From NCBI RefSeq assembly GCF_030013595.1, contig NZ_CP122771.1: a stretch of 64,000 nt of DNA; one strand, written 5' to 3'. The DNA comes from Escherichia coli (GTDB lineage Bacteria; Pseudomonadota; Gammaproteobacteria; Enterobacterales; Enterobacteriaceae). Both the position numbers and the translations under genes were made by a program. The notes beneath the pieces are model-generated. The model did no database searches. It worked only from the letters and a program-made list of their open reading frames with translations, and had not been told where the DNA came from. Positions within the stretch are counted from its first letter, which is position 1; each line of letters opens with the position of its first letter. Of the stretch, positions 12,965-56,246 are shown in pieces.

Positions 12965-15783
12965 ATGAAGTTTATGTGATTGCCGGTGGTGAGTGGTTGC
13001 GGAATAACCTGAATGCCATTGCCGCCTTTATGGGGACCCGGACGTGGGATTCCATTGAAAAAATTGCGCTCACATTGTCTGTTCTCGCGGTGGCCGTAAT
13101 GTGGGTACAGCGGCACAACGTGATGGATTTGCTGGGCTGGGTGGCCGTGTTTGTGCTTATCAGCCTACTGGTTAATGTCCGCACATCGGTGCAGATTATT
13201 GATAACAGTGACCTGGTCAAAGTTCACCGGGTGGATAATGTGCCGGTCGGACTGGCGATGCCACTTTCACTGACGACCCGTATCGGGCATGCAATGGTGG
13301 CCAGTTACGAGATGATCTTCACGCAACCGGACAGTGTCACCTACAGCAAAACGGGGATGCTGTTTGGCGCAGAACTGGTATCAAAAAGCACCGACTTTTT
13401 GTCCCGTAATCCGGAGATCGCCAATCTTTTCCAGGATTATGTGCAGAACTGCGTGATGGGGGATATTTACCTGAACCACAAATACACGCTGGAGGAACTG
13501 ATGGCCTCCGCTGATCCTTACACGCTGATTTTTTCCCGCCCCAGTCCGCTGCGGGGCGTTTATGACAGCAATAATAATTTCGTGACCTGTAAGGACGCGT
13601 CGGTTTCGCTGAAAGACAAGCTGAATCTGGACACACAGAGTGGCGGAAAAACATGGCATTATTATGCCCAGCAGCTATTTGGTGGACGCCCTGATCCGAA
13701 CCTGTTGTTCAGTACGCTGATTGGCGACAGTTACAGTTACTTCTATGGCTCAAGTAAATCAGCCAGCCAGATCATCCGCCAGAATGTCACCATCAATGCG
13801 CTGAAGGAGGGGATCACCAGTTATGCCGCACGTAATGGTGATTCGGCCAGCCTGGTGAATCTGGCCACCACATCATCGATGGAGAAGCAACGTCTGGCAC
13901 ATGTCTCCATCGGTCATGTGGCGATGCGGACACTGCCCATGACGCAGACCATCCTGACGGGGATCGCCATCGGTATTTTCCCGCTCCTGGTACTGGCGGC
14001 TGTCTTCAACAAACTGACGCTGTCCGTCCTGAAAGGCTATGTGTTTGCCCTGATGTGGTTGCAGTCATGGCCAATGTTGTACGCCATTCTGAACAGCGCC
14101 ATGACATTTTATGCGAAGCAGAATGGTGCACCGGTGGTGCTCTCGGAAATTTCACAGATACAGCTGAAATACTCCGATCTGGCTTCCACTGCCGGGTATC
14201 TTTCCATGATGATCCCGCCATTATCCTGGATGATGGTCAGGGGGCTCGGGGCAGGATTTTCCAGTGTGTACAGCCATTTCGCTTCCTCTGCTATCAGCCC
14301 GACCGCCAGTGCAGCAGGCAGTGTGGTTGACGGTAATTACTCCTACGGCAACATGCAGACGGAGAACGTGAACGGCTTCAGCTGGAGCACCAACAGCACC
14401 ACGTCGTTTGGTCAGATGATGTACCAGACCGGCAGTGGCGCAACCGCCACACAGACCCGTGACGGTAATATGGTGATGGATGCAAGCGGAGCTATGTCCC
14501 GGTTACCGGTCGGCATCAATGCAACGCGTCAGATTGCGGCAGCACAACAGGAAATGGCCCGGGAAGCATCGAACAGAGCAGAAAGTGCCCTGCATGGTTT
14601 CAGCAGCAGTATTGCCAGTGCCTGGAACACGCTCAGTCAGTTTGGTTCTAACCGGGGGAGCAGTGACTCTGTCACCGGTGGTGCTGACAGTACGATGAGT
14701 GCACAGGACTCCATGATGGCCAGCCGTATGCGCAGTGCAGTGGAAAGCTATGCGAAGGCGCATAATATCAGTAATGAGCAGGCGACTCAGGAACTGGCAT
14801 CCAGAAGTACGAGAGCTTCTGCCGGGATGTATGGAGATGCTCATGCTGAATGGGGGGTTAAACCTAAAATTCTTGGTGTTGGTGGCGGCTTAGGTGTTAA
14901 AGGTGGTGGTCGCGCTGGTATTGATTGGGAAGATAATGATGCGCATACGGCAAGTAGTAATACTCAGTCGAGCCATAATGCTCGTCATGATATCGATGCC
15001 AGAGCTACACAAGACTTTAAAGAGGCCAGCGATTACTTTACCAGTCGCAAGGTCAGTGAGTCCGGCAGCCATACTGACAATAATGCTGATTCCCGTGTGG
15101 ATCAGTTGTCTGCAGCCCTGAATTCAGCGAAGCAGAGTTACGACCAGTTCACGACGAATATGACCCGCAGCCATGAATATGCTGAAATGGCATCCCGTAC
15201 TGAAAGCATGAGTGGGCAGATGAGTGAAGACTTGTCGCAACAGTTTGCACAGTATGTAATGAAACACGCGCCACAGGATGCAGAAGCTATTCTGACAAAC
15301 ACCAGTTCACCGGAGATTGCAGAACGTCGTCGGGCGATGGCCTGGTCTTTTGTGCAGGAACAGGTACAGCCTGGTGTTGATAATGCCTGGCGGGAATCCC
15401 GTGGCGATATTGGTAAAGGAATGGAGAGCGTACCTTCGGGTGGTGGCAGTCAGGATATTATTGCTGACCATCAGGGACATCAGGCCATTATTGAGCAAAG
15501 AACGCAGGACAGTAATATCCGTAATGATGTAAAACATCAGGTTGATAATATGGTCACAGAATATAAAGGGAATATAGGTGATACTCAGAACAGCATACGT
15601 GGCGAGGAAAATATTGTAAGAGGACAGTATTCTGAGCTGCAGAATCACCATAAAACAGAGGCATTATCTCAGGATAATAAATATAATGAAGAAAAGTCGG
15701 CTCAGGAAAGAATGCCCGGGGCTGACAGTCCACAGGAACTTATGAAAAGGGCAAAGGAATATCAGGATAAGTATAAGCAATAA
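12961..15783 (+). CDS. traG: TraG (mating-pair stabilisation / entry exclusion target)
   Basis: 940 aa with N-terminal membrane domain and large periplasmic C-terminal domain; size as F TraG. Confidence 0.95.
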   Translation: MNEVYVIAGGEWLRNNLNAIAAFMGTRTWDSIEKIALTLSVLAVAVMWVQRHNVMDLLGWVAVFVLISLLVNVRTSVQIIDNSDLVKVHRVDNVPVGLAMPLSLTTRIGHAMVASYEMIFTQPDSVTYSKTGMLFGAELVSKSTDFLSRNPEIANLFQDYVQNCVMGDIYLNHKYTLEELMASADPYTLIFSRPSPLRGVYDSNNNFVTCKDASVSLKDKLNLDTQSGGKTWHYYAQQLFGGRPDPNLLFSTLIGDSYSYFYGSSKSASQIIRQNVTINALKEGITSYAARNGDSASLVNLATTSSMEKQRLAHVSIGHVAMRTLPMTQTILTGIAIGIFPLLVLAAVFNKLTLSVLKGYVFALMWLQSWPMLYAILNSAMTFYAKQNGAPVVLSEISQIQLKYSDLASTAGYLSMMIPPLSWMMVRGLGAGFSSVYSHFASSAISPTASAAGSVVDGNYSYGNMQTENVNGFSWSTNSTTSFGQMMYQTGSGATATQTRDGNMVMDASGAMSRLPVGINATRQIAAAQQEMAREASNRAESALHGFSSSIASAWNTLSQFGSNRGSSDSVTGGADSTMSAQDSMMASRMRSAVESYAKAHNISNEQATQELASRSTRASAGMYGDAHAEWGVKPKILGVGGGLGVKGGGRAGIDWEDNDAHTASSNTQSSHNARHDIDARATQDFKEASDYFTSRKVSESGSHTDNNADSRVDQLSAALNSAKQSYDQFTTNMTRSHEYAEMASRTESMSGQMSEDLSQQFAQYVMKHAPQDAEAILTNTSSPEIAERRRAMAWSFVQEQVQPGVDNAWRESRGDIGKGMESVPSGGGSQDIIADHQGHQAIIEQRTQDSNIRNDVKHQVDNMVTEYKGNIGDTQNSIRGEENIVRGQYSELQNHHKTEALSQDNKYNEEKSAQERMPGADSPQELMKRAKEYQDKYKQ

Positions 15784-16284: not shown

Positions 16285-16332
16285 ATCTTAATTTGTATAT
16301 TATGACGTTTTATTCAATATGAAGGAACATTG

Positions 16333-17064
16333 ATGAAAATGAAAAAATTGATGATGGTTGCACTGGTCAGTTCCACTCTGGCCCTTTCAGGGTGTGGTGC
16401 GATGAGCACAGCAATCAAGAAGCGTAACCTTGAGGTGAAGACTCAGATGAGTGAGACCATCTGGCTTGAACCCGCCAGCGAACGCACGGTATTTCTGCAG
16501 ATCAAAAACACGTCTGATAAAGACATGAGTGGGCTGCAGGGCAAAATTGCTGATGCTGTGAAAGCAAAAGGATATCAGGTGGTGACTTCTCCGGATAAAG
16601 CCTACTACTGGATTCAGGCGAATGTGCTGAAGGCCGATAAGATGGATCTGCGGGAATCTCAGGGATGGCTGAACCGTGGTTATGAAGGCGCAGCAGTTGG
16701 TGCAGCGTTAGGTGCCGGTATCACCGGATATAATTCCAGTTCTGCCGGTGCCACACTCGGTGTGGGCCTTGCTGCCGGTCTGGTGGGTATGGCTGCAGAT
16801 GCGATGGTGGAAGATGTGAACTATACCATGATCACGGATGTGCAGATTGCAGAGCGTACTAAGGCAACGGTGACAACGGATAATGTTGCCGCCCTGCGTC
16901 AGGGCACATCAGGTGCGAAAATTCAGACCAGTACTGAAACAGGTAACCAGCATAAATACCAGACCCGTGTGGTCTCAAATGCGAACAAGGTTAACCTGAA
17001 ATTTGAAGAGGCGAAGCCTGTTCTCGAAGACCAGCTGGCCAAATCAATCGCAAATATTCTCTGA
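16333..17064 (+). CDS. traT: TraT, surface-exclusion and serum-resistance lipoprotein
   Basis: Lipobox LALSGC; near-identity to recalled F TraT (…[49 protein letters not shown]…). Confidence 0.9.
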
Positions 17065-17072
17065 ACCTCGTC

Positions 17073-17097
17073 AGGAGGCTGGTCTGACCGGCCTCCT
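17073..17097 (+). terminator. Hairpin immediately after traT
   Basis: Inverted repeat AGGAGGCTGGTC / GACCGGCCTCCT directly downstream of the traT stop. Confidence 0.45.
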
Positions 17098-17266
17098 TGC
17101 TGACGCCTCGCGTTGCTCGTTGTCCAACCCCGGGACGTAACAAAATAAATTTTGTCACTTCCCGGCGTTTCCGAAATAAATATGAAAACACTGAGCGGTT
17201 GTGCAAATTCTTTGTGCGACCGTGAAGTGTTGCCGGCGAAGCCGGGATCTTCCGGAGAAAGTCATT

Positions 17267-18004
17267 ATGACATCAGACAATATCGCTGAATATGTTGGTG
17301 AGAATAATCAATTTACTGAGAAGCCTGTAACTGAATACCCCCCGGTGATACAGGATAATACAGTGACCACTAAAGACTATCTGTACAGCAATAATATTGA
17401 TACTGACCTTTTAGTGGTTATCGGAGGGCTTATTGTTATATTGTTTCTCATGATGCTTATCATGTACTTTATTAATTCTCTCAGGCATAAGGAATTAACT
17501 GAAATACTGACAAAAATATCTTTTCCTGAAAAATCCGGGAGCAATTCGCTTAAACCGGAAGCGGTCAGCTGTAATTTGTTGTCCCTGTGTGTGCTGGCAC
17601 CGGTATTCTTTACACCCAGAAAGCTGGCTGAAGTTTCCAGGGAGATCATCGTGGCGAGTGCGCAGGAAATTGCATGGACGCCGGGGAGCAGTCGTATTGA
17701 TGGCCACCAGGCGGAGAATATCACCTGGGCGATTTCATCGCAGTCTCCTGCCGATAAGTATGATCTCATCAATAAAACCTCCCGTGTTTCTCCTGACAGT
17801 GGCCGTTTTTATGAACCGGACACAGTTCTGGATCACCGTGAACGGGTACGCCTTTTTATTCAGATCCAGTTTCCGCATGGGAGTGACTGGTCTGAAGTAT
17901 TGCGCCTGACTGACATTGTTACAGAGAAGGTCTCTTCCGGCAGGGCTGCAGGCGGGTATCACCACCGACATACAGGGTACACCTGGTCTGTTTCTGTGAA
18001 TTAA
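17267..18004 (+). CDS. Hypothetical membrane protein between traT and traD
   Basis: RBS ggaga then ATG 17267; one predicted TM segment [22 protein letters not shown]; 246 aa. Confidence 0.5.
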
Positions 18005-20280: not shown

Positions 20281-23200
20281 TGTTGAGTTTCAGCGTTGTT
20301 AAATCGGCAGGCAGTGCCGGAAACTATTACACCGACAAGGATAATTACTATGTGCTGGGCAGCATGGGAGAACGCTGGGCTGGTCAGGGGGCTGAACAGC
20401 TTGGGCTGCAGGGCAGCGTCGATAAGGATGTTTTTACCCGTCTTCTGGAGGGCAGGCTGCCGGACGGAGCGGATTTAAGCCGCATGCAGGATGGCAGTAA
20501 TAAGCATCGTCCCGGCTACGACCTGACCTTCTCCGCCCCCAAAAGTGTCTCCATGATGGCCATGCTCGGGGGGGATAAACGTCTTATTGATGCACATAAC
20601 CAGGCCGTGGATTTTGCTGTCCGTCAGGTGGAGGCGCTGGCTTCCACACGGGTGATGACGGACGGACAGTCAGAAACGGTGCTGACCGGTAATCTGGTGA
20701 TGGCACTGTTTAACCATGACACCAGTCGCGATCAGGACCCACAGTTACACACGCATGTGGTGGTGGCTAATGTCACGCAGCATAATGGCGAGTGGAAGAC
20801 ACTGAGCAGTGACAAAGTGGGGAAAACCGGATTTTCCGAGAACGTGCTCGCGAACCGGATTGCGTTCGGGAAAATATATCAGAGTGAGTTACGTCAGCGC
20901 GTTGAGGCGCTGGGTTATGAAACCGAAGTGGTCGGTAAGCACGGTATGTGGGAGATGCCGGGCGTACCGGTGGAGGCCTTTTCCAGTCGTTCACAGGCTA
21001 TCAGGGAGGCCGTCGGTGAAGACGCCTCGCTGAAATCCCGGGATGTGGCGGCGCTGGATACGCGTAAATCCAAACAGCACGTCGATCCGGAAATCAGAAT
21101 GGCTGAATGGATGCAGACGCTGAAGGAAACCGGGTTCGACATCCGGGCATATCGTGACGCGGCGGATCAGCGTGCGGAGATCCGCACGCTGACGCCCGGG
21201 CCTGCTTCACAGGACGGGCCGGATGTGCAGCAGGCGGTGACACAGGCGATTGCCGGATTAAGTGAACGAAAAGTGCAGTTCACGTACACGGACGTGCTGG
21301 CCAGAACGGTCGGCATACTGCCGCCGGAAAATGGTGTGATTGAACGGGCACGCGCCGGTATCGATGAGGCCATCAGCCGTGAGCAGCTTATCCCCCTCGA
21401 CCGTGAGAAGGGGCTGTTCACGTCCGGGATTCATGTGCTCGATGAGCTGTCAGTCCGGGCACTCAGTCGTGACATCATGAAACAGAACCGGGTGACCGTA
21501 CATCCGGAGAAAAGTGTTCCCCGGACGGCCGGTTACAGCGATGCCGTCAGCGTGCTGGCACAGGATCGCCCGTCGCTGGCCATTGTGTCCGGGCAGGGCG
21601 GTGCAGCCGGGCAGCGTGAGCGGGTGGCTGAACTGGTCATGATGGCCCGGGAGCAGGGGCGGGAGGTGCAGATTATCGCTGCTGACCGTCGCTCGCAGAT
21701 GAACATGAAGCAGGATGAGCGTCTGTCCGGTGAGCTGATAACCGGGCGGCGTCAGCTGCTGGAGGGCATGACCTTCACGCCGGGCAGTACCGTTATCGTC
21801 GACCAGGGCGAAAAACTCTCCCTGAAAGAGACGTTAACTCTGCTGGACGGTGCCGCACGGCATAACGTACAGGTCCTGATAATCGACAGCGGGCAGCGGA
21901 CCGGTACCGGCAGTGCGCTGATGGCCATGAAGGATGCCGGAGTGAACACATATCGCTGGCAGGGGGGAGAACAGCGACCGGCAACCATCATCAGTGAACC
22001 GGACCGTAATGTCCGCTATGCCCGGCTGGCCGGAGATTTTGCGGTCAGCGTGAAAGCCGGAGAAGAGAGCGTGGCGCAGGTCAGTGGAGTACGGGAACAG
22101 GCCATGCTGACTCAGACCATTCGCAGTGAGCTGAAAACACAGGGCGTACTCGGACATCCGGAGGTGACCATGACCGCGCTGTCACCGGTCTGGCTGGACA
22201 GCCGGAGTCGTTATCTGCGGGATATGTACCGCCCGGGGATGGTGATGGAGCAGTGGAACCCGGAGACACGCAGTCATGACCGCTATGTGATAGACCGGGT
22301 GACGGCGCAGAGTCACAGCCTGACCCTGCGGGATGCGCAGGGCGAAACGCAGGTGGTGCGTATTTCCTCCCTGGACAGCAGCTGGTCGCTGTTCCGGCCG
22401 GAAAAAATGCCGGTGGCAGACGGCGAGCGACTGAGGGTGACCGGGAAAATTCCCGGACTCCGAGTCTCCGGCGGTGACCGCCTGCAGGTGGCATCCGTCA
22501 GTGAAGATGTGATGACGGTTGTTGTGCCGGGGCGGGCTGAACCGGCCTCCCTGCCTGTGAGCGATTCACCGTTCACGGCACTGAAGCTGGAGAATGGCTG
22601 GGTGGAAACGCCCGGGCATTCCGTCAGCGACAGTGCGAAGGTTTTTGCCTCCGTCACACAGATGGCAATGGACAAGGCCACCCTGAACGGTCTGGCCCGC
22701 AGTGGTCGTGATGTCCGGCTGTATTCCTCACTGGATGAAACCCGTACTGCGGAAAAACTTGCCCGCCATCCGTCCTTTACGGTGGTTTCTGAGCAGATAA
22801 AGGCGCGGGCCGGTGAGACATCGCTGGAAACGGCTATCAGTCATCAGAAGTCCGCACTTAACACACCGGCACAGCAGGCCATTCATCTTGCCCTTCCGGT
22901 GGTGGAAAGTAAAAACCTGGCCTTCAGCCATGTGGACCTGCTGACAGAGGCAAAGTCGTTTGCTGCAGAAGGAACCAGTTTTGCTGACCTGGGGCGGGAA
23001 ATCAATGCGCAGATAAAACGCGGTGACTTACTGTATGTGGATGTGGCAAAAGGCTATGGCACAGGCCTGCTGGTTTCCCGTGCGTCGTATGAGGCAGAAA
23101 AGAGCATTCTTCGCCATATTCTCGAAGGTAAGGAGGCGGTCACGCCGCTGATGGAGAGAGTACCTGGCGAACTCATGGAGAAACTGACATCAGGACAGCG

Positions 23201-25550
23201 TGCCGCCACCCGCATGATACTGGAAACGTCCGACCGTTTCACGGTGGTGCAGGGCTATGCCGGTGTGGGTAAGACCACACAGTTCCGGGCGGTGATGTCA
23301 GCCGTGAACATGCTGCCGGAGAGTGAGCGTCCCCGTGTCGTTGGGCTGGGCCCCACGCACCGTGCGGTCGGGGAGATGCGCAGCGCCGGCGTGGATGCAC
23401 AGACACTGGCGTCCTTTCTGCATGACACGCAGCTGCAGCAGCGCAGCGGAGAAACGCCGGATTTCAGCAACACGCTGTTTCTGCTCGATGAGAGCTCAAT
23501 GGTGGGCAATACCGACATGGCACGGGCATACGCCCTGATTGCGGCCGGTGGTGGTCGTGCCGTGGCCAGCGGTGACACGGACCAGCTGCAGGCCATCGCG
23601 CCCGGTCAGCCTTTCCGTCTCCAGCAGACGCGCAGTGCTGCCGATGTGGTCATCATGAAGGAGATTGTGCGCCAGACGCCGGAGCTGCGGGAGGCGGTAT
23701 ACAGCCTGATTAACCGGGATGTGGAAAGGGCACTGTCCGGGCTTGAGAGTGTGAAACCGTCTCAGGTGCCACGTCAGGAGGGCGCATGGGTACCGGAGCA
23801 CTCCGTGACGGAGTTCAGTCACAGCCAGGAAGCGAAACTGGCAGAAGCGCAGCAGAAGGCGATGCTGAAAGGTGAGGCTTTTCCGGATATTCCCATGACA
23901 CTGTATGAAGCCATTGTCCGCGATTATACCGGCAGGACGCCGGAAGCACGGGAGCAGACGCTGATTGTCACGCATCTGAATGAGGACCGGCGCGTACTGA
24001 ACAGCATGATTCATGATGCACGGGAAAAGGCCGGTGAGCTGGGAAAAGAGCAGGTCATGGTGCCTGTCCTGAACACAGCGAATATACGCGACGGGGAGTT
24101 GCGTCGTCTCTCCACCTGGGAGACACATCGGGACGCACTTGCCCTGGTGGATAATGTGTATCACCGGATTGCCGGTATCAGCAAGGATGACGGGCTGATA
24201 ACTCTGCAGGATGCGGAAGGTAACACGCGGCTGATTTCGCCCCGGGAGGCGGTGGCTGAAGGCGTCACACTGTACACTCCGGACACCATCCGGGTGGGAA
24301 CCGGTGACCGGATGCGCTTCACGAAGAGTGACCGGGAGCGCGGTTATGTGGCCAACAGCGTCTGGACGGTGACAGCGGTTTCCGGTGACAGTGTCACGCT
24401 GTCGGACGGACAGCAGACCCGGGTGATTCGCCCCGCCCAGGAGCAGGCAGAGCAACATATTGACCTGGCCTATGCCATCACCGCCCACGGTGCGCAGGGG
24501 GCGAGTGAAACCTTTGCCATTGCGCTTGAAGGCACGGAAGGTAACCGGAAACTGATGGCCGGCTTTGAGTCAGCCTACGTGGCCCTGTCGCGTATGAAGC
24601 AGCATGTGCAGGTGTACACCGATAATCGTCAGGGCTGGACGGATGCCATTAACAATGCCGTACAGAAAGGAACTGCCCACGATGTGCTGGAGCCGAAACC
24701 GGACCGGGAGGTCATGAATGCAGAGCGGCTGTTCAGTACGGCGCGGGAGCTGCGGGACGTGGCGGCAGGGCGTGCCGTTCTTCGTCAGGCGGGGCTTGCC
24801 GGGGGAGACAGTCCTGCACGGTTTATTGCACCGGGACGTAAATATCCACAGCCGTATGTGGCACTGCCGGCGTTTGACCGTAACGGCAAATCAGCCGGTA
24901 TCTGGCTGAACCCGCTGACCTCGGATGACGGAAACGGGCTGCGGGGATTCAGCGGTGAAGGCCGTGTGAAAGGCAGCGGGGATGCGCAGTTCGTGGCCCT
25001 GCAGGGCAGCCGTAACGGAGAAAGCCTGCTGGCTGATAATATGCAGGAGGGTGTCCGGATTGCCCGTGATAATCCTGACAGCGGTGTGGTGGTAAGAATC
25101 GCCGGTGAAGGCCGTCCGTGGAATCCCGGTGCCATCACCGGTGGCCGCGTGTGGGGGGATATCCCGGACAACAGCGTCCAGCCGGGAGCCGGAAATGGCG
25201 AGCCGGTCACGGCAGAGGTACTGGCACAGCGGCAGGCTGAAGAGGCCATCCGCCGTGAAACGGAACGCCGTGCGGATGAAATTGTCCGTAAAATGGCAGA
25301 GAACAAACCTGACCTGCCGGATGGCAAAACAGAGCAGGCTGTCAGGGAGATTGCCGGGCAGGAGCGTGACCGGGCTGCCATAACTGAACGGGAAGCCGCG
25401 CTGCCGGAGAGTGTGCTGCGTGAATCACAACGGGAGCGGGAAGCGGTCCGGGAGGTTGCCCGGGAAAATCTGCTGCAGGAGCGTCTGCAGCAGATGGAGC
25501 GGGATATGGTTCGTGACCTGCAGAAAGAGAAAACCCTGGGCGGAGACTGA
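20280..25550 (+). CDS. traI: TraI, relaxase/helicase
   Basis: 1756 aa, N-terminus [24 protein letters not shown]; ATGA overlap with the traD stop; size identical to F TraI. Confidence 0.95.
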   Translation: MLSFSVVKSAGSAGNYYTDKDNYYVLGSMGERWAGQGAEQLGLQGSVDKDVFTRLLEGRLPDGADLSRMQDGSNKHRPGYDLTFSAPKSVSMMAMLGGDKRLIDAHNQAVDFAVRQVEALASTRVMTDGQSETVLTGNLVMALFNHDTSRDQDPQLHTHVVVANVTQHNGEWKTLSSDKVGKTGFSENVLANRIAFGKIYQSELRQRVEALGYETEVVGKHGMWEMPGVPVEAFSSRSQAIREAVGEDASLKSRDVAALDTRKSKQHVDPEIRMAEWMQTLKETGFDIRAYRDAADQRAEIRTLTPGPASQDGPDVQQAVTQAIAGLSERKVQFTYTDVLARTVGILPPENGVIERARAGIDEAISREQLIPLDREKGLFTSGIHVLDELSVRALSRDIMKQNRVTVHPEKSVPRTAGYSDAVSVLAQDRPSLAIVSGQGGAAGQRERVAELVMMAREQGREVQIIAADRRSQMNMKQDERLSGELITGRRQLLEGMTFTPGSTVIVDQGEKLSLKETLTLLDGAARHNVQVLIIDSGQRTGTGSALMAMKDAGVNTYRWQGGEQRPATIISEPDRNVRYARLAGDFAVSVKAGEESVAQVSGVREQAMLTQTIRSELKTQGVLGHPEVTMTALSPVWLDSRSRYLRDMYRPGMVMEQWNPETRSHDRYVIDRVTAQSHSLTLRDAQGETQVVRISSLDSSWSLFRPEKMPVADGERLRVTGKIPGLRVSGGDRLQVASVSEDVMTVVVPGRAEPASLPVSDSPFTALKLENGWVETPGHSVSDSAKVFASVTQMAMDKATLNGLARSGRDVRLYSSLDETRTAEKLARHPSFTVVSEQIKARAGETSLETAISHQKSALNTPAQQAIHLALPVVESKNLAFSHVDLLTEAKSFAAEGTSFADLGREINAQIKRGDLLYVDVAKGYGTGLLVSRASYEAEKSILRHILEGKEAVTPLMERVPGELMEKLTSGQRAATRMILETSDRFTVVQGYAGVGKTTQFRAVMSAVNMLPESERPRVVGLGPTHRAVGEMRSAGVDAQTLASFLHDTQLQQRSGETPDFSNTLFLLDESSMVGNTDMARAYALIAAGGGRAVASGDTDQLQAIAPGQPFRLQQTRSAADVVIMKEIVRQTPELREAVYSLINRDVERALSGLESVKPSQVPRQEGAWVPEHSVTEFSHSQEAKLAEAQQKAMLKGEAFPDIPMTLYEAIVRDYTGRTPEAREQTLIVTHLNEDRRVLNSMIHDAREKAGELGKEQVMVPVLNTANIRDGELRRLSTWETHRDALALVDNVYHRIAGISKDDGLITLQDAEGNTRLISPREAVAEGVTLYTPDTIRVGTGDRMRFTKSDRERGYVANSVWTVTAVSGDSVTLSDGQQTRVIRPAQEQAEQHIDLAYAITAHGAQGASETFAIALEGTEGNRKLMAGFESAYVALSRMKQHVQVYTDNRQGWTDAINNAVQKGTAHDVLEPKPDREVMNAERLFSTARELRDVAAGRAVLRQAGLAGGDSPARFIAPGRKYPQPYVALPAFDRNGKSAGIWLNPLTSDDGNGLRGFSGEGRVKGSGDAQFVALQGSRNGESLLADNMQEGVRIARDNPDSGVVVRIAGEGRPWNPGAITGGRVWGDIPDNSVQPGAGNGEPVTAEVLAQRQAEEAIRRETERRADEIVRKMAENKPDLPDGKTEQAVREIAGQERDRAAITEREAALPESVLRESQREREAVREVARENLLQERLQQMERDMVRDLQKEKTLGGD

Positions 25551-27062: not shown

Positions 27063-27275
27063 ATGAATGGATTCAGAAACAGTTCACGGAACGGTCAGGT
27101 CTGGTGCTGGCAGCGTGCCGGAAGCCGGGCCGTTATTCTGGAAGTCAGTGGTCGCTGGATGGAAGCGGCAGAAGCATGGCGACGGGCTGCCAGTGTTGCA
27201 CCCCGGACAGACTGGCAGCAGTTTGCCCGAAAAAGGGCTGAACACTGCCACCGGCGCTGCCGGGGAAGGGTGTAA
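27063..27275 (+). CDS. Small hypothetical Arg/Trp-rich protein (70 aa)
   Basis: Strong RBS aaagaggag upstream of ATG 27063; basic protein MNGFRNSSRNGQVWCWQRAGSR...; coding status uncertain. Confidence 0.3.
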   Translation: MNGFRNSSRNGQVWCWQRAGSRAVILEVSGRWMEAAEAWRRAASVAPRTDWQQFARKRAEHCHRRCRGRV

Positions 27276-27561
27276 CGAAAAAAGCAGCCTTCATTACTCC
27301 AGGTATTCAGAAGGCTGAATAATGCATGAGATTTTTCTTTTTTATATCTGGCCTGGCAGTATGACCAGTCAGCAGTCATTATCACAGGATTATTGCTGTA
27401 TTAAGTAATAGCGTGCTGTTTTGTGATTGATTTCATAAAACAAGACGTCGTTTAATATGCGCCTGAATATTCACGAGGGAAGTCTTTCTTTTTATATGGT
27501 GCTCCCGGAAATAAAATATTTTTTGTTATTGCTCACCCTGTTATGAATAAAAGGTAAAAAC

Positions 27562-28239
27562 ATGGAAGAAAATAATACGAGTACAGATAAAAACACCCTG
27601 ACAGCCCTTATTGATTATGAAAACTGTGGCAGCCTGAAAAATATTTCCCTTGAGCAGTATGGGGAACTGATTATTTTTGTCGGGCCACAGCAGAACGTCG
27701 TTGTTCTTCCTGCAGACTCTTTTCCTGAAGGTGCGAGAATCACTATCAGGCAGGTGAGTGGTGTGTCCAGGAATAATGTCGATTTTCATCTTGTTCTGGA
27801 GCTGGGGCGGATAAGCTGTTGTGCAGCAGGGAAAGATAAAACATACCACATCATTTCATCGGATAAGGGATATGACGGTGTTATCAGGACGCTGAAAGAA
27901 GCCGGTATTACCTGCATTCGTCGTGATGTACCGGAAAGTATTGCTGCTGCCGGTGAGTCTGGTGCAGACAAAAGTAACTGCCTGAAACAACCTTCTGTTC
28001 CTGAAAGTGATATCGTCAGCCGTTGGGCAGGAAAGCTGCAGCAGATAGCCGGCAGCGGAGCCGGTAATATGCCTGTGTCCGTCGAAACATTTAATAATTA
28101 TTTAAAGTCACACATGCGTGACGAATGGAACAAAACCCGGGCAGTGGCGATAAGGAATGAACTGGTTCGTCGGGGAGTCACAGAAGTCAGGGAGAAAAAG
28201 ATAATCTGGAAAAAGGCGAAAAAGGAGAATAAAGCATGA
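27562..28239 (+). CDS. Hypothetical protein (225 aa)
   Basis: ATG with AT-rich promoter-like upstream region; basic C-terminal tail; no family recognised with confidence. Confidence 0.5.
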   Translation: MEENNTSTDKNTLTALIDYENCGSLKNISLEQYGELIIFVGPQQNVVVLPADSFPEGARITIRQVSGVSRNNVDFHLVLELGRISCCAAGKDKTYHIISSDKGYDGVIRTLKEAGITCIRRDVPESIAAAGESGADKSNCLKQPSVPESDIVSRWAGKLQQIAGSGAGNMPVSVETFNNYLKSHMRDEWNKTRAVAIRNELVRRGVTEVREKKIIWKKAKKENKA

Positions 28240-28555: not shown

Positions 28556-29149
28556 ATGGTGAAACTGATTATTTTTATTCTCATTGTTCTGATTATTGCA
28601 GCGTTACTTATCCGGATTATCCTCAGAAGTGTAAATCAGCATTCTCCTTTGCTGATGCAATTGCATGCGGCAGGTATACGGACCGGTGATGCAGAGCGAA
28701 TACTGTCCAGCGGTGAATACTGGCAACGTCAGAAGACGCTGCTGACAGAAAGGGAAGTCAGTTTTATGAAAGGACTGTTCAGAATTGTGGATATGAAGCG
28801 GTGGTATCTGTGTCCGCAGGTACGGGTCGCGGATATCGTCCAGCTGAACGAGAATATCCGGCCACGATCACGCCAGTGGTGGCAGTTATTCAGAATGGTG
28901 TCTCAGTGGCATGTTGATGTGGTTATCGTTGAGCGGCGTTCGTTCAGTATTGTTGCAGCAGTAGAGCTGGATGATGCCAGCCATTTACGACCGGAACGCA
29001 GACGCCGGGATATTCTTCTGGAAGAGGTTCTGAGGCAGGCTGGTATTCCGTTGCTCAGAAGCCACGATGCCAGAAAACTGCTGCAGATGACCGGAGAATG
29101 GCTGAATACAACAGGGGCTGATCAGCAGTCCCCGGAACATCGTAGCTGA
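28556..29149 (+). CDS. Membrane-anchored protein with a PD-(D/E)xK-like motif, DUF2726-like
   Basis: N-terminal TM helix MVKLIIFILIVLIIAALLIRII; motif HVDVVIVERRSFSIVAAVELDDASH suggests a restriction-endonuclease-like fold; assignment from recall only. Confidence 0.5.
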   Translation: MVKLIIFILIVLIIAALLIRIILRSVNQHSPLLMQLHAAGIRTGDAERILSSGEYWQRQKTLLTEREVSFMKGLFRIVDMKRWYLCPQVRVADIVQLNENIRPRSRQWWQLFRMVSQWHVDVVIVERRSFSIVAAVELDDASHLRPERRRRDILLEEVLRQAGIPLLRSHDARKLLQMTGEWLNTTGADQQSPEHRS

Positions 29150-29303
29150 CGCCTTCGCGTTGCTCAGTTGTCCAACCCCGGGAGCGGGAAAAAGCAAGTT
29201 TTCCCCGCTCCCGGCGTTTCTGTAATAAAAAACGGGAAATGGTGGTCACAGAGTAAATGCCGGAACCACCTGTACCCAAACTTTATATAATAATGGTGAA
29301 TAT

Positions 29304-29768
29304 ATGAAATATGATGATGTATCAGAATTGATGATTAAGCGTGAACACAATATTCTTATTATGGGGAATTCTGCCTCCCACATTGATAAATTTTTTAAGG
29401 GATATTCTATACCAGGTTCTAAATATTATGATTTCACTCAGATTAACAGTGATTCAGATGTAGAGAGAAATGAGCATGCTGTCTCATTTATCAGGGATGC
29501 AATGAATAGTGAAGAGCACACAATCATTTTTAATTGTGTTGGGTGGCATGATTTAGGTGGTGGATCAGCAGTATCACAGTTTGCAATGATGGTCAGAAAA
29601 TTTGGTAAACAACTTATTGTCGCTGTAAGTGAAAAGGATGCCATCAAATTAAAAGATAACTTTAATATTATTGGAACGTTGTCATATGGTAAAGAAAATT
29701 TTATTGCCATGAGTCATACGAAAAGCGAGTTAACTGGAGGGAAATGTCGGTACCGGATTAAAAATTGA
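29304..29768 (+). CDS. Hypothetical AT-rich orphan protein (154 aa)
   Basis: ATG preceded by AT-rich region and a strong upstream hairpin; no recognisable family. Confidence 0.45.
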   Translation: MKYDDVSELMIKREHNILIMGNSASHIDKFFKGYSIPGSKYYDFTQINSDSDVERNEHAVSFIRDAMNSEEHTIIFNCVGWHDLGGGSAVSQFAMMVRKFGKQLIVAVSEKDAIKLKDNFNIIGTLSYGKENFIAMSHTKSELTGGKCRYRIKN

Positions 29769-29967
29769 TGTAAATAAAAAGCATACTTATTGGCTGGAGT
29801 GACGCCTTCGTGCTTCTGTAGTAAAAAGCGGGAAAGGCAGGTAATAGTCAGCAACAGGGAATGTGGTATTATCGCGGCGGGTGTCTGAGCCTTTCTGGTT
29901 CAGGCAAGACGCAGGTACCAGAAATGCGAAGACCCCACTCGTTAATCCATTAACTCGTGAGGCCTGC

Positions 29968-30174
29968 ATGAAGTACCTTAACACTACTGATTGTAGCCTC
30001 TTCCTTGCAGAGAGGTCAAAGTTTATGACGAAATATGCCCTTATCGGGTTGCTCGCCGTGTGCGCCACGGTGTTGTGTTTTTCACTGATATTCAGGGAAC
30101 GGTTATGTGAGCTGAATATTTACAGGGGAAATACAGTGGTGCAGGTAACTCTGGCCTACGAAGCACGGAAGTAA
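29968..30174 (+). CDS. SrnB' overlapping leader ORF (mok-like) of the srnB locus
   Basis: ATG 29968 in frame with the toxin; MKYLNTTDCSLFLAERSKF... precedes the toxin Met. Confidence 0.5.
   Translation: MKYLNTTDCSLFLAERSKFMTKYALIGLLAVCATVLCFSLIFRERLCELNIYRGNTVVQVTLAYEARK
30025..30174 (+). CDS. srnB: SrnB, Hok/Gef-family membrane toxin
   Basis: 49-aa peptide MTKYALIGLLAVCATVLCFSLIFRERLCELNIYRGNTVVQVTLAYEARK matches recalled F SrnB/Hok family. Confidence 0.8.
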   Translation: MTKYALIGLLAVCATVLCFSLIFRERLCELNIYRGNTVVQVTLAYEARK

Positions 30175-30706: not shown

Positions 30707-30949
30707 CTAAAATGTAGCGACATCACATTCTTGCCTGTTTCTGGTGTGCGTGATAGATTGCTGATCGTTTAAGGAATTTTGTGGCTGGCCACGCCGTAAG
30801 GTGGCAGGGAACTGGTTCTGATGTGGATTTACAGGAGCCAGAAAAGCGAAAACCCCGATAATCTTTCTATGTTTGGCGACGAAGAAGATTACCGGGGCCA
30901 TCTAAAAACCGTATAGCCAACAATTCAGCTATGCGGGGAGTATAGTTAT

Positions 30950-32058: not shown

Positions 32059-32786
32059 TTTAACTGCAAGGGACTTCCCCATAAGGTTACAACCGTTCAT
32101 GTCATAAAGCGCCAGCCGTCAGCGTTACAGGGTGCAATGTATCTTTTAAACACCTGTTTATATCTCCTTTAAACTACTTAATTACATTCATTTAAAAAGA
32201 AAACCTATTCACTGCCTGTCCTGTGGACAGACAGATATGCACCTCCCACCGCAAGCGGCGGGCCCCGACCAGAAACTATTTAGTTACAACACTCAAATAC
32301 AACCACCGGAAGAACCCCGGTCCCGCGCAGAACTGAAACCACAAAGCCCCTCCTCATAACTGAAAAGCGAGGCCGCCCCCGCCCAAAGGGCGGGAACAAC
32401 ATCGCTTTTAATTATGAATGTTGTAACTACATTATCATCGCTGCCAGTTCTCTGGCTGGAAGTCCTCAGTACACGCTCGTAAGCGGCCCTCACGGCCCGC
32501 TAACGCGGAGATACGCCCCGACTTCGGGTAAACCCTTGTCGGGACCACTCCGACCGCGCACAGAAGCTCTCTCATGGCTGAAAGCGGGTATGGTCTGGCA
32601 GGGCCGGGGATGGGTAAGGTGAAATCTATCAATCAGTACCGGCTTACGCCGGGCTTCGGCGGTTTTACTCCTGTATCATATGAAACAACAGAGTGCCGCC
32701 TTCCATGCCGCTGATGCGGCATATCCTGGTGACGATATCTGAATCGTTATATACTGTGTATATACGTAGTAATGACGAGGTGATAA

Positions 32787-43072: not shown

Positions 43073-43303
43073 TGTTCTTTAAAAATCAGGATTTATTTCA
43101 GGCTCCGGCAATATGCATTTATTTGTTCTGTCAGTCATCCGGCTGGCAGGTAATGAGAACGCAGGAACAGAAGGAGGAAAACACCGGAGAACGTCAGACG
43201 CAGATATGAAAAAAGCAGGTCAGGGACCTGCTTAATCCACACCGCAGAGACTGCACGAACAGTCTTTACGGTTTCATTAATTAACGTCATAAGAGGCTAA
43301 ATT

Positions 43304-43534
43304 ATGACAGTAAGTATTGTTTCACCTTCCGCAGCGGCTGTAAAGCCCCGCCGTCATCCCCGTTTCAGACGCGAAGACATCCCCGCGCCGGAAATTGACC
43401 CCGTGCTGAAAGCCTTCGGGCGACACATTGCCCGGAGTTTTCACCGGGGGCGTGGTGTACACATCCCCGCCATGAAAAACACGACCTTCGGGCAGGTGCT
43501 CCGCACACTCGAACTGAAACGCGCTTTTAACTGA
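43304..43534 (+). CDS. Hypothetical small basic protein (76 aa)
   Basis: ATG with upstream gaggc; first ORF after repeat B copy 1. Confidence 0.4.
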   Translation: MTVSIVSPSAAAVKPRRHPRFRREDIPAPEIDPVLKAFGRHIARSFHRGRGVHIPAMKNTTFGQVLRTLELKRAFN

Positions 43535-53063: not shown

Positions 53064-53374
53064 CTTAAATGTCCCTTTACTGCGAAAATGGACATTAGTA
53101 TCGGAAACAGGAAAGGGAGGCGAAAGACGGTTTAAATGAGACGGTTACCGTGATGCGGCAACAATCACATGGATTTCCCGTGAACGGTCTGAATGAGCGG
53201 ATTATTTTCAGGGAAAGTGAGTGTGGTCAGCGTGCAGGTATATGGGCTATGATGTGCCCGGCGCTTGAGGCTTTCTGCCTCATGACGTGAAGGTGGTTTG
53301 TTGCCGTGTTGTGTGGCAGAAAGAAGATAGCCCCGTAGTAAGTTAATTTTCATTAACCACCACGAGGCATCCCT

Positions 53375-53587
53375 ATGTCTAGTCCACATCAGGATAGCCT
53401 CTTACCGCGCTTTGCGCAAGGAGAAGAAGGCCATGAAACTACCACGAAGTTCCCTTGTCTGGTGTGTGTTGATCGTGTGTCTCACACTGTTGATATTCAC
53501 TTATCTGACACGAAAATCGCTGTGCGAGATTCGTTACAGAGACGGACACAGGGAGGTGGCGGCTTTCATGGCTTACGAATCCGGTAA
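53375..53587 (+). CDS. mok: Mok (FlmC) leader ORF overlapping hok
   Basis: 70-codon ORF overlapping hok in a different frame, as in hok/sok loci. Confidence 0.5.
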
Positions 53588-53902: not shown

Positions 53903-56246
53903 GGGTCGGGTAGCAGCGGCACATTGCTGCGCCGCCGCCCCCTAAGAACGGAGCGTGCGAGTTTTCCCGCACTCCGCTCAAGCCTTTATAAGTGCTTTCG
54001 GTGAGCACCGGCTTCCCTGCTGTGTAACTGTCGGTGGCAGTTCGGATGTAACAACTCGAGATTGGTCAGTTCGTCACTGCCGCCCATAACTTTCCTGATC
54101 CGGTGATGTATATTCCATCCGGTCTGGTTGGTTATGAGTTGTCCGCACTGCGGACAGTGTTTCCCCTGCCTCTTCCAGAGTTGAACTACTGTCTTCATCT
54201 TCTTTGATTTGCCTTTCCAGATTAGATCCAGACGACGTTCAAAGTAGATTTCCATTCCGGGGGTGTATGGTGTTGCTTCGCCTTTGATTTTTATATGGCG
54301 CTTTATCGGTGTTTCCATTGCCCGGAAGAGTGTCAGAATTTTCCCTTCCGGGGTTATGGCTTTAAAGATCCAGCGCCTGCCTTCAAAGGAGAAGTATCGT
54401 CCGGCGATCCACCGCAATCCTTTCCGGGGATGCCGTCTTACACACCATCGCCATATAGCTCGCCAGATTTGGGTGTCGACATAATTAAATGTTTCTTTCG
54501 CCACGACGTGTCGGTGATAGGTAGCCCATCCCCGGATCACCGGGTTTAGCTGGCCTATCAGTTTCCATGCCGGGAGCGTCGGATTGCGTTTAATTATTTC
54601 TCTGACTTTACAGAGGAAGTTCTTCAGGTTTTTCTTCGACGGTTTAATCAGCATTTTACCGTTGTACTTCCTGACGTTCTGCCCTAAAAAGTCGAAGCCT
54701 TTATCTATATGTGTGATCGCTGTTTTTTCTTCCGACAGTTCCAGCCCTCGTTCGCGCATGAAAGCTGCAATCAGTGGTCTGACCTCATTTTCCAGCAATT
54801 CACGGGAGCTGCCTGAACAGATGAAATCATCAGCATATCTCACATAATTCACCTGGTGCTTTGCACTGTGATAACCACTTTTCCTGAACGTTTGCATCAG
54901 TTCCTTCTCCAGTCCGTCCAGAGCCATGTTGGCGAGAACAGGGGATATGATGCCTCCCTGCGGTGTCCCGCTGTTCGTATGGTTAAACACGCCTCTTTCC
55001 ATGTAACCTGCTTTCAACCATTTTTTAAGCAGTCTCCTGTCCATCGGAATATGGGAAAGCAGCCAGTCATGGCTGATGTTATCGAAACACCCTTTAATAT
55101 CGCCCTCCAGTATCCATTTGGGCGATACTTTCTGGCTCATCCGCAGAAAAATGGACTCAATGGCGTCATGCGTGCTGCGCATTGGTCTGAAACCATAGCT
55201 GTTATGGTCAGCAGTGGTCTCGGATACGGGTTCCAGAGCCAGCAGCCACAGTGCCTGCATGGCCCGGTCCCTCATTGTGGGTATGCCCAGCGGTCGCGTT
55301 TTGCCGTTTGATTTTGGGATATGTATTCGCCGTAGTGGCTGTGGCCTGTAACCACACAGATTCAGGCTGCATATTCCTTCCCATTTCTCCTTCGGTGTGT
55401 GCCATATTTTTCCGTCAATACCGGGTGTCCTTTTACCGGTATTTTCAGTTACACGCCTGACAGCCACGGCTTTGCCGGAGAATGAGCGGGTGAGGATGCG
55501 CTGTAGTTCTCTGACCTGCCGCCATTGTTGCTGTCGGGTTGCCTTTGCAATCCGTAACTGTAGCTTTCGCACCCGGGCATGGCATGCTTTCCAGTTTATG
55601 GTGTGCCAGCCTGTCGGGTGGGGTATCGTGGACACACTGATGTGTGTATTCATCTCGCTGATATCCTTTTGACTGCTTTACAGCTTTTCATGCAATTAAA
55701 GACCAGACGGAAGTCTGCCCGCTTTCGCGTCGGGGAACCTGCCCCGTATCCCGGTTATTACGGCCGGGCATTCGCTTTTTCCGTCCTCCTATGCCCGCAC
55801 CGCTAACAGTGTTCCTTGCGGTTCACCTGCCTGTGAGGCAGCGATACGGGTTTACCAGGTTCCGCTTAACATACAGAGGGTCAGGGCGGGTTCTGTCTCT
55901 TCACCGGGGGTCTCTGCGCCCATGTGCTCCCTGTGCGCGAGGTAGCAACCGGACCCCGTACCTTTTGGTTCAGGCCTGTCAGCATCTTTGGCCTGTTGCC
56001 GATAACGGTGTTTATCAACAGTTCACATGTGTTAACCCTTCTGACCAGCCTTGCTCTCCTGCCGCATGATGCTTGCAGCAAGGTAAAGCCCCTCACGGGG
56101 CTTTACCCGGGCTGACGCCCGGCTCTCGTTGTCCCGGGAGCTTCAGACCCCGCCGTTGCCGGCAACGCCTGTCCCGGTAGGCTACAGCTAATGGGATAGC
56201 TGGTTTTATCAATGTAAAACAATACGTTAAGCGACTTCCTGTCGCA
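53903..56246 (-). mobile_element. Group II intron (about 2.34 kb) inserted in a type B leading-region repeat; low-coordinate boundary uncertain by about 10 bp
   Basis: Minus-strand 5' end GTGCGAC at 56246; domain V GAGCGGAGTGCGGGAAAACTCGCACGCTCCGTTC at 53946-53979; flanks rejoin to match uninterrupted copy 1 at 42459-42510. Confidence 0.8.
53986..55653 (-). CDS. Group II intron-encoded protein (reverse transcriptase / maturase / HNH endonuclease)
   Basis: 555 aa with RT motifs (YADD), maturase X region and C-terminal HNH-like Cys/His cluster. Confidence 0.9.
   Translation of the reverse strand: MNTHISVSTIPHPTGWHTINWKACHARVRKLQLRIAKATRQQQWRQVRELQRILTRSFSGKAVAVRRVTENTGKRTPGIDGKIWHTPKEKWEGICSLNLCGYRPQPLRRIHIPKSNGKTRPLGIPTMRDRAMQALWLLALEPVSETTADHNSYGFRPMRSTHDAIESIFLRMSQKVSPKWILEGDIKGCFDNISHDWLLSHIPMDRRLLKKWLKAGYMERGVFNHTNSGTPQGGIISPVLANMALDGLEKELMQTFRKSGYHSAKHQVNYVRYADDFICSGSSRELLENEVRPLIAAFMRERGLELSEEKTAITHIDKGFDFLGQNVRKYNGKMLIKPSKKNLKNFLCKVREIIKRNPTLPAWKLIGQLNPVIRGWATYHRHVVAKETFNYVDTQIWRAIWRWCVRRHPRKGLRWIAGRYFSFEGRRWIFKAITPEGKILTLFRAMETPIKRHIKIKGEATPYTPGMEIYFERRLDLIWKGKSKKMKTVVQLWKRQGKHCPQCGQLITNQTGWNIHHRIRKVMGGSDELTNLELLHPNCHRQLHSREAGAHRKHL

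Follow-up and report, generated by a model that had tools for sequence, protein, structure and literature searches.

A repeated hairpin module on an F-like plasmid backbone

The analysed window (64,000 nucleotides of contig NZ_CP122771.1 from the Escherichia coli assembly GCF_030013595.1) represents an F-like (IncF) plasmid, in which the tra genes, the RepFII replicon and a short hairpin-bearing module are carried on one backbone. The module follows traT and recurs before the replicon (Table 1). A repeat shared around a long hairpin at 17101-17180 and 29150-29225 had been described in the initial annotation. This was borne out by alignment of the two copies, from which the refined limits in Table 1 were derived. 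The similarity was strongest in the flanks and was not confined to the hairpin, as it would have had to be to refute the initial annotation. The 5' parts, GCTGACGCC(T)TCGCGTTGCTC(A)GTTGTCCAACCCCGGGA, were the same except for two single-nucleotide indels, and the 3' part TCCCGGCGTTTC was identical in both copies, with weaker similarity continuing beyond it (.G.AATAAA); the central hairpins had different sequences.

Table 1 Module copies, neighbouring genes and other features in the window.
Feature	Coordinates	Strand	Remarks
AS-traG	13680-13765	-	Rfam antisense RNA
traG, traS, traT	traT at 16330-17064	+	Gene order
Hairpin 1, traT-proximal, terminator-type	17073-17097	+	Outside the module; internal control
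Module copy A	17100-17171		Flanked by hairpin 1 and the conserved block upstream of traD; alignment with copy B; covariance model 77 bits, minus strand
Long hairpin (P2) of copy A	17126-17169	-	AT-rich interior; folds at -24.1 kcal/mol (plus) vs -31.2 kcal/mol (minus)
Conserved traD-upstream block (AAAACACTGAGCGGTTGTGCAAATTCTTTGTGCG...GCCGGCGAAGCCGG)	17176-17247		Right of copy A; also in a module-free Klebsiella variicola plasmid
245-aa ORF	17267-18004	+	Followed by traD, traI, traX, finO, a small ANR-type gene and a PIN7-domain ORF
AS-traI	23129-23205	-	Rfam antisense RNA
AS-pc02	27172-27355	-	Rfam antisense RNA
225-aa ORF	27562-28239		Between the ANR-type gene and the DUF2726 gene; PIN7 domain (E = 4e-18)
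DUF2726 gene	28556-29149	+	Stop codon is the TGA of module copy B
Module copy B	29146-29220		TGA at 29147-29149 ends the DUF2726 gene; alignment; covariance model 97 bits
Long hairpin (P2) of copy B	29174-29218	-	16-bp GC-rich stem, AAC/GTT closure, conserved G.G mismatch
154-aa ORF	29304-29768	+	Insert bracketed by module copy B and the hairpin-less remnant
Hairpin-less remnant of a third module	29799-29838		GTGACGCCTTCGTGC joined to TTCTGTAGTAAAAAGCGGGAAAGG; recurs in metagenome loci L163 and L219
hok/sok-type locus	29879-30035		Rfam sok; adjoins RepFII
hok/sok and RepFII replicon	CopA at 30844-30932		Downstream of the 154-aa ORF
Ter core	32281-32290	-	Inverted pair with 32420-32429
Structure between the Ter cores	32311-32410	-	18.6 kcal/mol more stable on the minus strand
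Ter core	32420-32429	+	Inverted pair with 32281-32290
Leading-region segment	43151-49270	-	In several 100-nt windows the minus (T) strand is favoured by 14-20 kcal/mol in folding
AS-pc01	43210-43309	-	Rfam antisense RNA
hok/sok-type locus	53259-53435		Rfam sok; leading region
Group II intron	53905-56203	-	Rfam Intron_gpII and group-II-D1D4-7; leading region
R100-type nic sequence	~58985	-	Reads GCGTAGTGTGT/GGTGCT
traJ, FinP, oriT	~59-59.9 kb		

The stem of copy B comprised 16 bp with one mismatch or bulge. The exact 17-mer GTTGTCCAACCCCGGGA occurred at two places in the window, in copies A and B only (0.14 expected by chance), and a covariance-model scan of the window recovered exactly these two full copies and no further, more divergent ones. 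A third, partial copy was located after the 154-aa ORF. This remnant consisted of the module head TGACGCCTTCG and the tail TTCTGTAGTAAAAAGCGGGAAAGG, with the spacer and hairpin missing. The 10-mer CGTTGCTCAG was also found twice, in the DUF2726 gene (29050-29059) and in copy B (29157-29166), and a metagenome contig (locus L171) carried a deletion exactly between two such 10-mers.

Several further features accompany the module on this plasmid. No Pfam domain was detected in either the 245-aa or the 154-aa ORF. A PIN7 domain was found in the 225-aa ORF, and the finO-repA2 interval resembles a small island of nuclease-type accessory genes. Two separate hok/sok-type loci were present, and the leading region additionally contained a group II intron. 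The minus-strand folding excess in the leading region would be in keeping with single-stranded promoters of the Frpo type. Just past repA1 and oriR lay two Tus Ter cores (GTTGTAACTA) in inverted orientation, and the structure between them could be an R1-type primase G-site region.

Conservation and distribution of the module

In total, 44 distinct full-length copies were collected from plasmid records, genomes and a metagenome scan. The module was 72-80 bp long, with invariant ends (CTGACGCC ... GGCGTTTC) and an invariant spacer (GTTGTCCAAC). All 44 copies started with CTGACGCC, with one exception (TTGACGCC), and finished with GGCGTTTC, an invariance that is partly by construction because most variants were gathered with a fixed-flank search pattern. 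The spacer was also the same in BLAST-derived copies outside the fixed pattern (L004 and L006) and in two divergent copies found with the model (L139b and L197b). The module ends were sharp, with more than 10 unrelated sequences on each side. Its stem had a constant length of 16 bp, an AAC/GTT closure and a conserved G.G mismatch, and ranged from AT-rich to GC-rich; the stem sequence turned over freely with pairing maintained. At one locus (L250, NZ_AP042571.1 59142-59207), the module was interrupted in the hairpin loop by an IS66-family element (ISEc8), and an 86-aa ORF, different from the 245-aa ORF, lay between traT and the module on that plasmid.

Of the 5426 complete E. coli genomes, 3035 carried the module, with 5160 plasmid-borne and 31 chromosomal occurrences; in approximately 2700 genomes it followed traT. 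A search for the 75-bp unit in other plasmids, as suggested by the initial annotation, returned more than 5000 PLSDB plasmids for copy A and more than 5000 for copy B. Beyond E. coli, module-bearing plasmids occurred in Klebsiella, Salmonella, Shigella, Enterobacter, Citrobacter, Pantoea, Kluyvera and relatives. A 15-mer scan of genome contigs (298 Gb) yielded mostly chance hits, as expected, together with about eight real loci. The phage record collection contained no match, RefSeq had no annotation under the module, no Rfam family matched at the gathering score (chance-level hits only, up to E = 10), and a search of a literature library retrieved no paper mentioning the sequence. The module is a discrete, unannotated and very widespread backbone element of F-like (IncF) plasmids.

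The module shares short length, palindromic structure, intergenic location and repetition with REP/BIME, ERIC and MITE-type repeats, but differs from them in being almost restricted to F-like plasmids (31 of 5191 places chromosomal) and in occurring in one orientation and in one or two copies. An origin as a MITE or IS-derived repeat was rejected, with no target-site duplication in the flanks and a terminal inverted match of only 5 bp (ACGCC/GGCGT). A Tus-Ter site was likewise rejected: the module has GTTGTCCAAC and not the core GTTGTAACTA, of which the true instances start at 32281 and 32420. For a DnaA box, TTGTCCAAC fitted only six of the nine strict-consensus positions and lay outside the stem. 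The resemblance to Tn3 inverted repeats (CTGACGC..TCAGT) needs an 11-nt gap and is presumably a coincidence.

Pairing is maintained on the strand antisense to the tra genes

Comparison of the variants revealed a pronounced strand asymmetry of the hairpin. The minus-strand fold was more stable in 29 of 31 distinct stems with RNA parameters (mean difference 6 kcal/mol) and in all 30 variants with DNA parameters. Over the 31 stems, 53 G.U pairs were counted on the minus strand versus a single one on the plus strand, where the corresponding positions were A.C mismatches. In a minus-strand alignment of 30 sequences, 96.6% of the cells were standard pairs and changes on both sides were observed at six pairs. 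Wobble accounted for 71 cells (14%) versus 17 non-standard cells, and was found at 8 of 17 pair positions, which varied among lineages. The covariation score was 0.318 compared with 0.176 in shuffles, none of which reached 0.318 (0 of 500), and it dropped sharply when the partners were slid. A sense-strand hairpin was weaker yet present in all variants (-10 to -27 kcal/mol), and one variant (L004), which had lost its 3' end, showed the reverse strand bias. By compensatory change, the module hairpin retains its pairing on the antisense strand of the tra genes. This asymmetry is a comparative result across variants that is not visible from the two copies alone, which were not outliers in a single-sequence asymmetry scan of the window (z = -1.6 and -0.9).

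Two other sources of the pattern were considered and rejected. Transitions in the flanking traT, traD and DUF2726 genes were strand-symmetric (G>A 84, C>T 88, A>G 40 and T>C 51), so a biased mutation process does not explain the pattern in the module. Transversion-type, non-wobble mismatches were rare, whereas they should be common if a sense terminator were merely being weakened on purpose, and this source was rejected too. Separately, coding on the minus strand was rejected, as stem indel lengths were not multiples of three.

The terminator-type hairpin directly after traT served as an internal control outside the module and showed the opposite strand bias. Its plus strand was the more stable in all 12 variants, and its G.U pairs numbered 17 on the plus versus 6 on the minus strand. 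It was conserved with compensatory change. In K. variicola pJF-787, the spacer between traT and traD is without the module but keeps this hairpin, there with a proper T-run, indicating that it is this hairpin, and not the module, that is the terminator of traT. From its sequence, it behaves like a real sense-strand terminator, as would be expected for that role.

Module ends coincide with synteny breaks

The module was always oriented as the tra genes and occupied two sites. At the first, it followed traT and preceded traD or the 245-aa ORF. At the second, it was the last element before the RepFII replicon, with a DUF2726, PIN/hypothetical, ANR or 154-aa-type ORF upstream and repA2 (at 169 nt), hok, a PLD gene (at 33 nt) or the 154-aa ORF downstream. 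Homology between plasmids often started or stopped exactly at the module ends, and the homology blocks of copy B started at 29146. Furthermore, two modules 1.1-2.5 kb apart enclosed gene blocks in some Klebsiella-/Enterobacter-type contigs.

The initial annotation had raised the possibility that the repeat is a footprint of recombination that delivered the adjacent genes, which it took for orphans. For the 154-aa gene this held. In the usual arrangement (L002), the module lies directly before hok/sok. In the window this junction was split: copy B and about 30 nt of the usual right flank were followed by the 154-aa ORF, the remnant and then the right flank again. Full modules flanked 154-aa homologues on both sides in contigs L156, L168 and L170, and a homologue of only 55% identity had a module immediately 3' of it. 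The footprint interpretation is supported for the 154-aa gene, situated between copy B and the hairpin-less remnant. The gene is not an orphan, however, since tblastn recovered relatives in 796 PLSDB plasmids down to ~53% identity. For the 245-aa gene the proposed delivery at the repeat did not hold. Plasmids free of this ORF stay homologous to ~17248, which is ~77 nt past the module, and by this comparison the 245-aa ORF is an insertion with its left breakpoint at ~17248 and not at the module.

The module was also connected to the genes preceding it. A long ORF ended exactly at the TGA of CTGACGCC in 23 of the 50 distinct left flanks, and no long ORF entered the module in another frame (0 of 50). 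The ORFs sharing this TGA came from at least eight unrelated families (337, 220, 204, 196, 132, 119, 115 and 102 aa). The module is thereby linked to the frame in which the sense strand is read, although its structure is selected on the opposite strand. As the only conserved island amid swapped accessory genes, the module provides a joint for gene exchange between plasmids. Exchange at the module is a secondary role, and it explains the position of the 154-aa gene.

Possible functions of the module

The initial annotation had also suggested that the repeat could be a duplicated terminator module. The duplication was confirmed, whereas the terminator part was not: neither copy was called in a terminator scan, the tail GCGTTTC(C/T)G contains no T-run or U-rich tract 3' of the stem, and pairing is kept on the antisense strand. 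The case for a terminator is weak. In a broader form, the module could be a sense-strand terminator, an attenuator or a shared 3'-UTR element, in which an mRNA hairpin after the stop codon would partially stop transcription between traT and traD and before RepFII, or would protect 3' ends. Both positions suit useful sense termination, many upstream genes have their stop codon right where the module starts, and in all variants the sense hairpin is followed by GCGUUUCUGU. Judging by the title of their 1987 study, Jalajakumari et al. reportedly found terminator activity downstream of traT in F. The module resembles that terminator as an intergenic hairpin after traT and after other genes, and copy B similarly has a GC-rich stem followed by a short TTTC, but the module lacks a T-run and keeps its pairing on the antisense strand. 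The wobble pairs lie on the wrong strand for a sense hairpin (53 vs 1), transversion-type mismatches are rare, and traT is already served by a separate hairpin of terminator type that shows the sense bias expected of one. In Klebsiella-type plasmids, moreover, the PLD gene begins 33 nt past the module with no promoter in the gap, so transcription must read through the module. A sense-strand role of this kind is considered unlikely.

The minus-strand G.U wobble, a classic signature of RNA structure, could instead reflect a hairpin in a minus-strand transcript, arising, for example, from Sok or CopA read-through or from spurious promoters in the AT-rich accessory genes, that stabilises, processes or stops the transcript and thereby shields the tra genes. 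Rfam AS-traG, AS-traI and AS-pc02 occur on the minus strand of this plasmid family, and Sok and the intron, both known minus-strand RNAs, had a similar strand bias in the window scan. AS-traG, AS-traI, AS-pc02 and AS-pc01 were first described on plasmid pHK01, and their presence here documents antisense transcription of the backbone elsewhere, but not at the module. Indeed, the antisense RNAs of IncFII plasmids (AS-traG, AS-traI, AS-pc01, AS-pc02, FinP, CopA and Sok) share the backbone and the minus strand with the module, but none of them overlaps it, and the module had no Rfam match even at E = 10. On the minus strand, neither copy has a promoter-like site to its right, and the sequences there are unrelated from one context to the next; an antisense transcript dedicated to the module and driven from a common promoter is therefore unlikely. 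The hairpin is not followed by a U-tract on the minus strand (GGGGUUGGACAAC), and its variable loop sequence makes loop-kissing unlikely. Overall, an antisense RNA element does not seem a probable explanation.

The orientation of transfer offers another explanation for the strand on which pairing is kept. The R100-type nic sequence (GTGTGT/GGTGCT) lies on the minus strand, flanked by the leading region on the left and by traM and traJ on the right, which identifies the minus strand as the one nicked at oriT and transferred, the T-strand. The same strand serves as template for the tra operon. Conversion of the incoming T-strand from single- to double-stranded DNA is already considered to be driven by hairpins on it (PMC10085688; PMC7690428). 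On the basis of the sequence comparisons, we tentatively propose, as the preferred reading, that the module is a cis-acting signal that works when the strand of T-strand polarity is single-stranded, a possibility that falls short of an even chance. With no promoter-like site and with unrelated right flanks, action on single-stranded DNA ranks above an antisense RNA. Most likely, the signal would act in T-strand DNA during or just after transfer, while this is single-stranded, and its clamp-like hairpin would be recognised by a protein along with the invariant unpaired bases that flank it. One candidate role is to initiate synthesis of the complementary strand immediately behind RepFII and behind traD-traI; another is a strand-specific recombination step. 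Several observations count against this proposal. Frequent G.U-type wobble is more typical of RNA than of DNA structure, the CTG start and three-hairpin layout of G4-type priming signals and the promoter boxes of Frpo are missing, a weaker sense-strand hairpin still forms, variant L004 has the reverse bias, and the two copies of the window are not outliers by themselves. The TGA coupling to the sense frame, moreover, is suggestive of sense-strand or cassette logic.

Known single-strand signals provide partial parallels to a module acting on the T-strand. Like ssi, Frpo and G4-type signals, it is a hairpin whose structure matters on the transferred-strand polarity, and its position just behind the replicon would, as for ssi-type signals, permit early double-stranding of the replicon. 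Unlike ssi and leading-region signals, it lies outside the leading region. Compared with Frpo it is far smaller and has no -35 or -10 box in the stem; a Frpo-type single-stranded DNA promoter was rejected, the 16-bp stem being too short and, from AT-rich to GC-rich, too variable for such boxes. A G4-type priming signal was also rejected, as the module lacked both a layout of three hairpins and a conserved CTG start for primase on the 3' side of the hairpin, CTG being found in E. coli B-type copies only. Similarity to the phage G4 oric did not exceed that of shuffled controls, a weak test in which the presumed R1-type G-site, used as a positive control, also failed by scoring at background. A secondary TraI nic site was rejected because the minus strand of the module is unlike the R100-type nic region of the window.

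The cassette logic hinted at by the TGA could be that of an attC-like recombination site, in which the folded bottom strand would be the substrate of a site-specific recombinase and promoterless units of an ORF plus a module would move in and out, creating the finO-repA2 variable region and the traT-side insertions. The parallels with integron attC sites (59-base elements) are considerable. Both lie at ORF 3' ends, often with the stop codon inside (here in at least eight unrelated gene families), and mark the borders of swapped units; in both, conserved ends enclose a variable imperfect palindrome of comparable size, the fold is specific to the bottom strand and AAC/GTT stands at the stem base. 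In addition, GTCCAAC fits the consensus RYYYAAC, some loci have module-flanked gene blocks or tandem arrangements, and synteny breakpoints coincide with the module on both sides. The 3' box, however, is GTTTCTG and not GTTRRRY, and paired, complementary 7-nt R''/R' boxes are missing, leaving only the AAC/GTT pair. No L boxes are clearly evident, and of the L box and extrahelical-base features only the conserved G.G mismatch beside AAC/GTT and a variable bulge were seen. Plasmids carry one to three copies and not arrays, and the breakpoints are accounted for just as well by ordinary homologous recombination across a conserved island. The classical F backbone is not known to carry an integrase, which weighs against such a site. 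The resemblance is treated here as an analogy and not as family membership, and a recombination site of this kind is judged quite improbable. By the same analogy, F-like plasmids might own an attC-like T-strand hairpin site that starts at the stop codon of promoterless accessory genes and is used in conjugation to swap units (in the finO-repA2 interval and by traT) or to prime the complementary strand. This combined scheme is speculative and rather doubtful.

The module might also be a functionless relic, a palindromic fragment duplicated once and hitch-hiking with the F backbone. Copies are few, one variant (L004) is decaying and one remnant has lost its hairpin. Nevertheless, compensatory evolution, a constant stem length and invariant flanks persist across lineages with unrelated neighbouring DNA, and the strand bias is inexplicable by mutation. 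A relic is therefore very improbable.

Significance of the module

The module is more interesting than a duplicated terminator, and is probably no ordinary gene terminator. Its hairpin evolves by compensatory change on the strand of T-strand polarity, and it marks the joints of accessory-gene exchange. In E. coli and Klebsiella, resistance and virulence genes are carried mainly by IncF plasmids. In these plasmids, the module would offer a concrete and easily mutated handle on the double-stranding of the entering strand outside the leading region, as well as on the shuffling of accessory genes near the replicon. Even if it is merely an island of homology, the module explains recurrent synteny breaks in thousands of sequenced plasmids and merits annotation.
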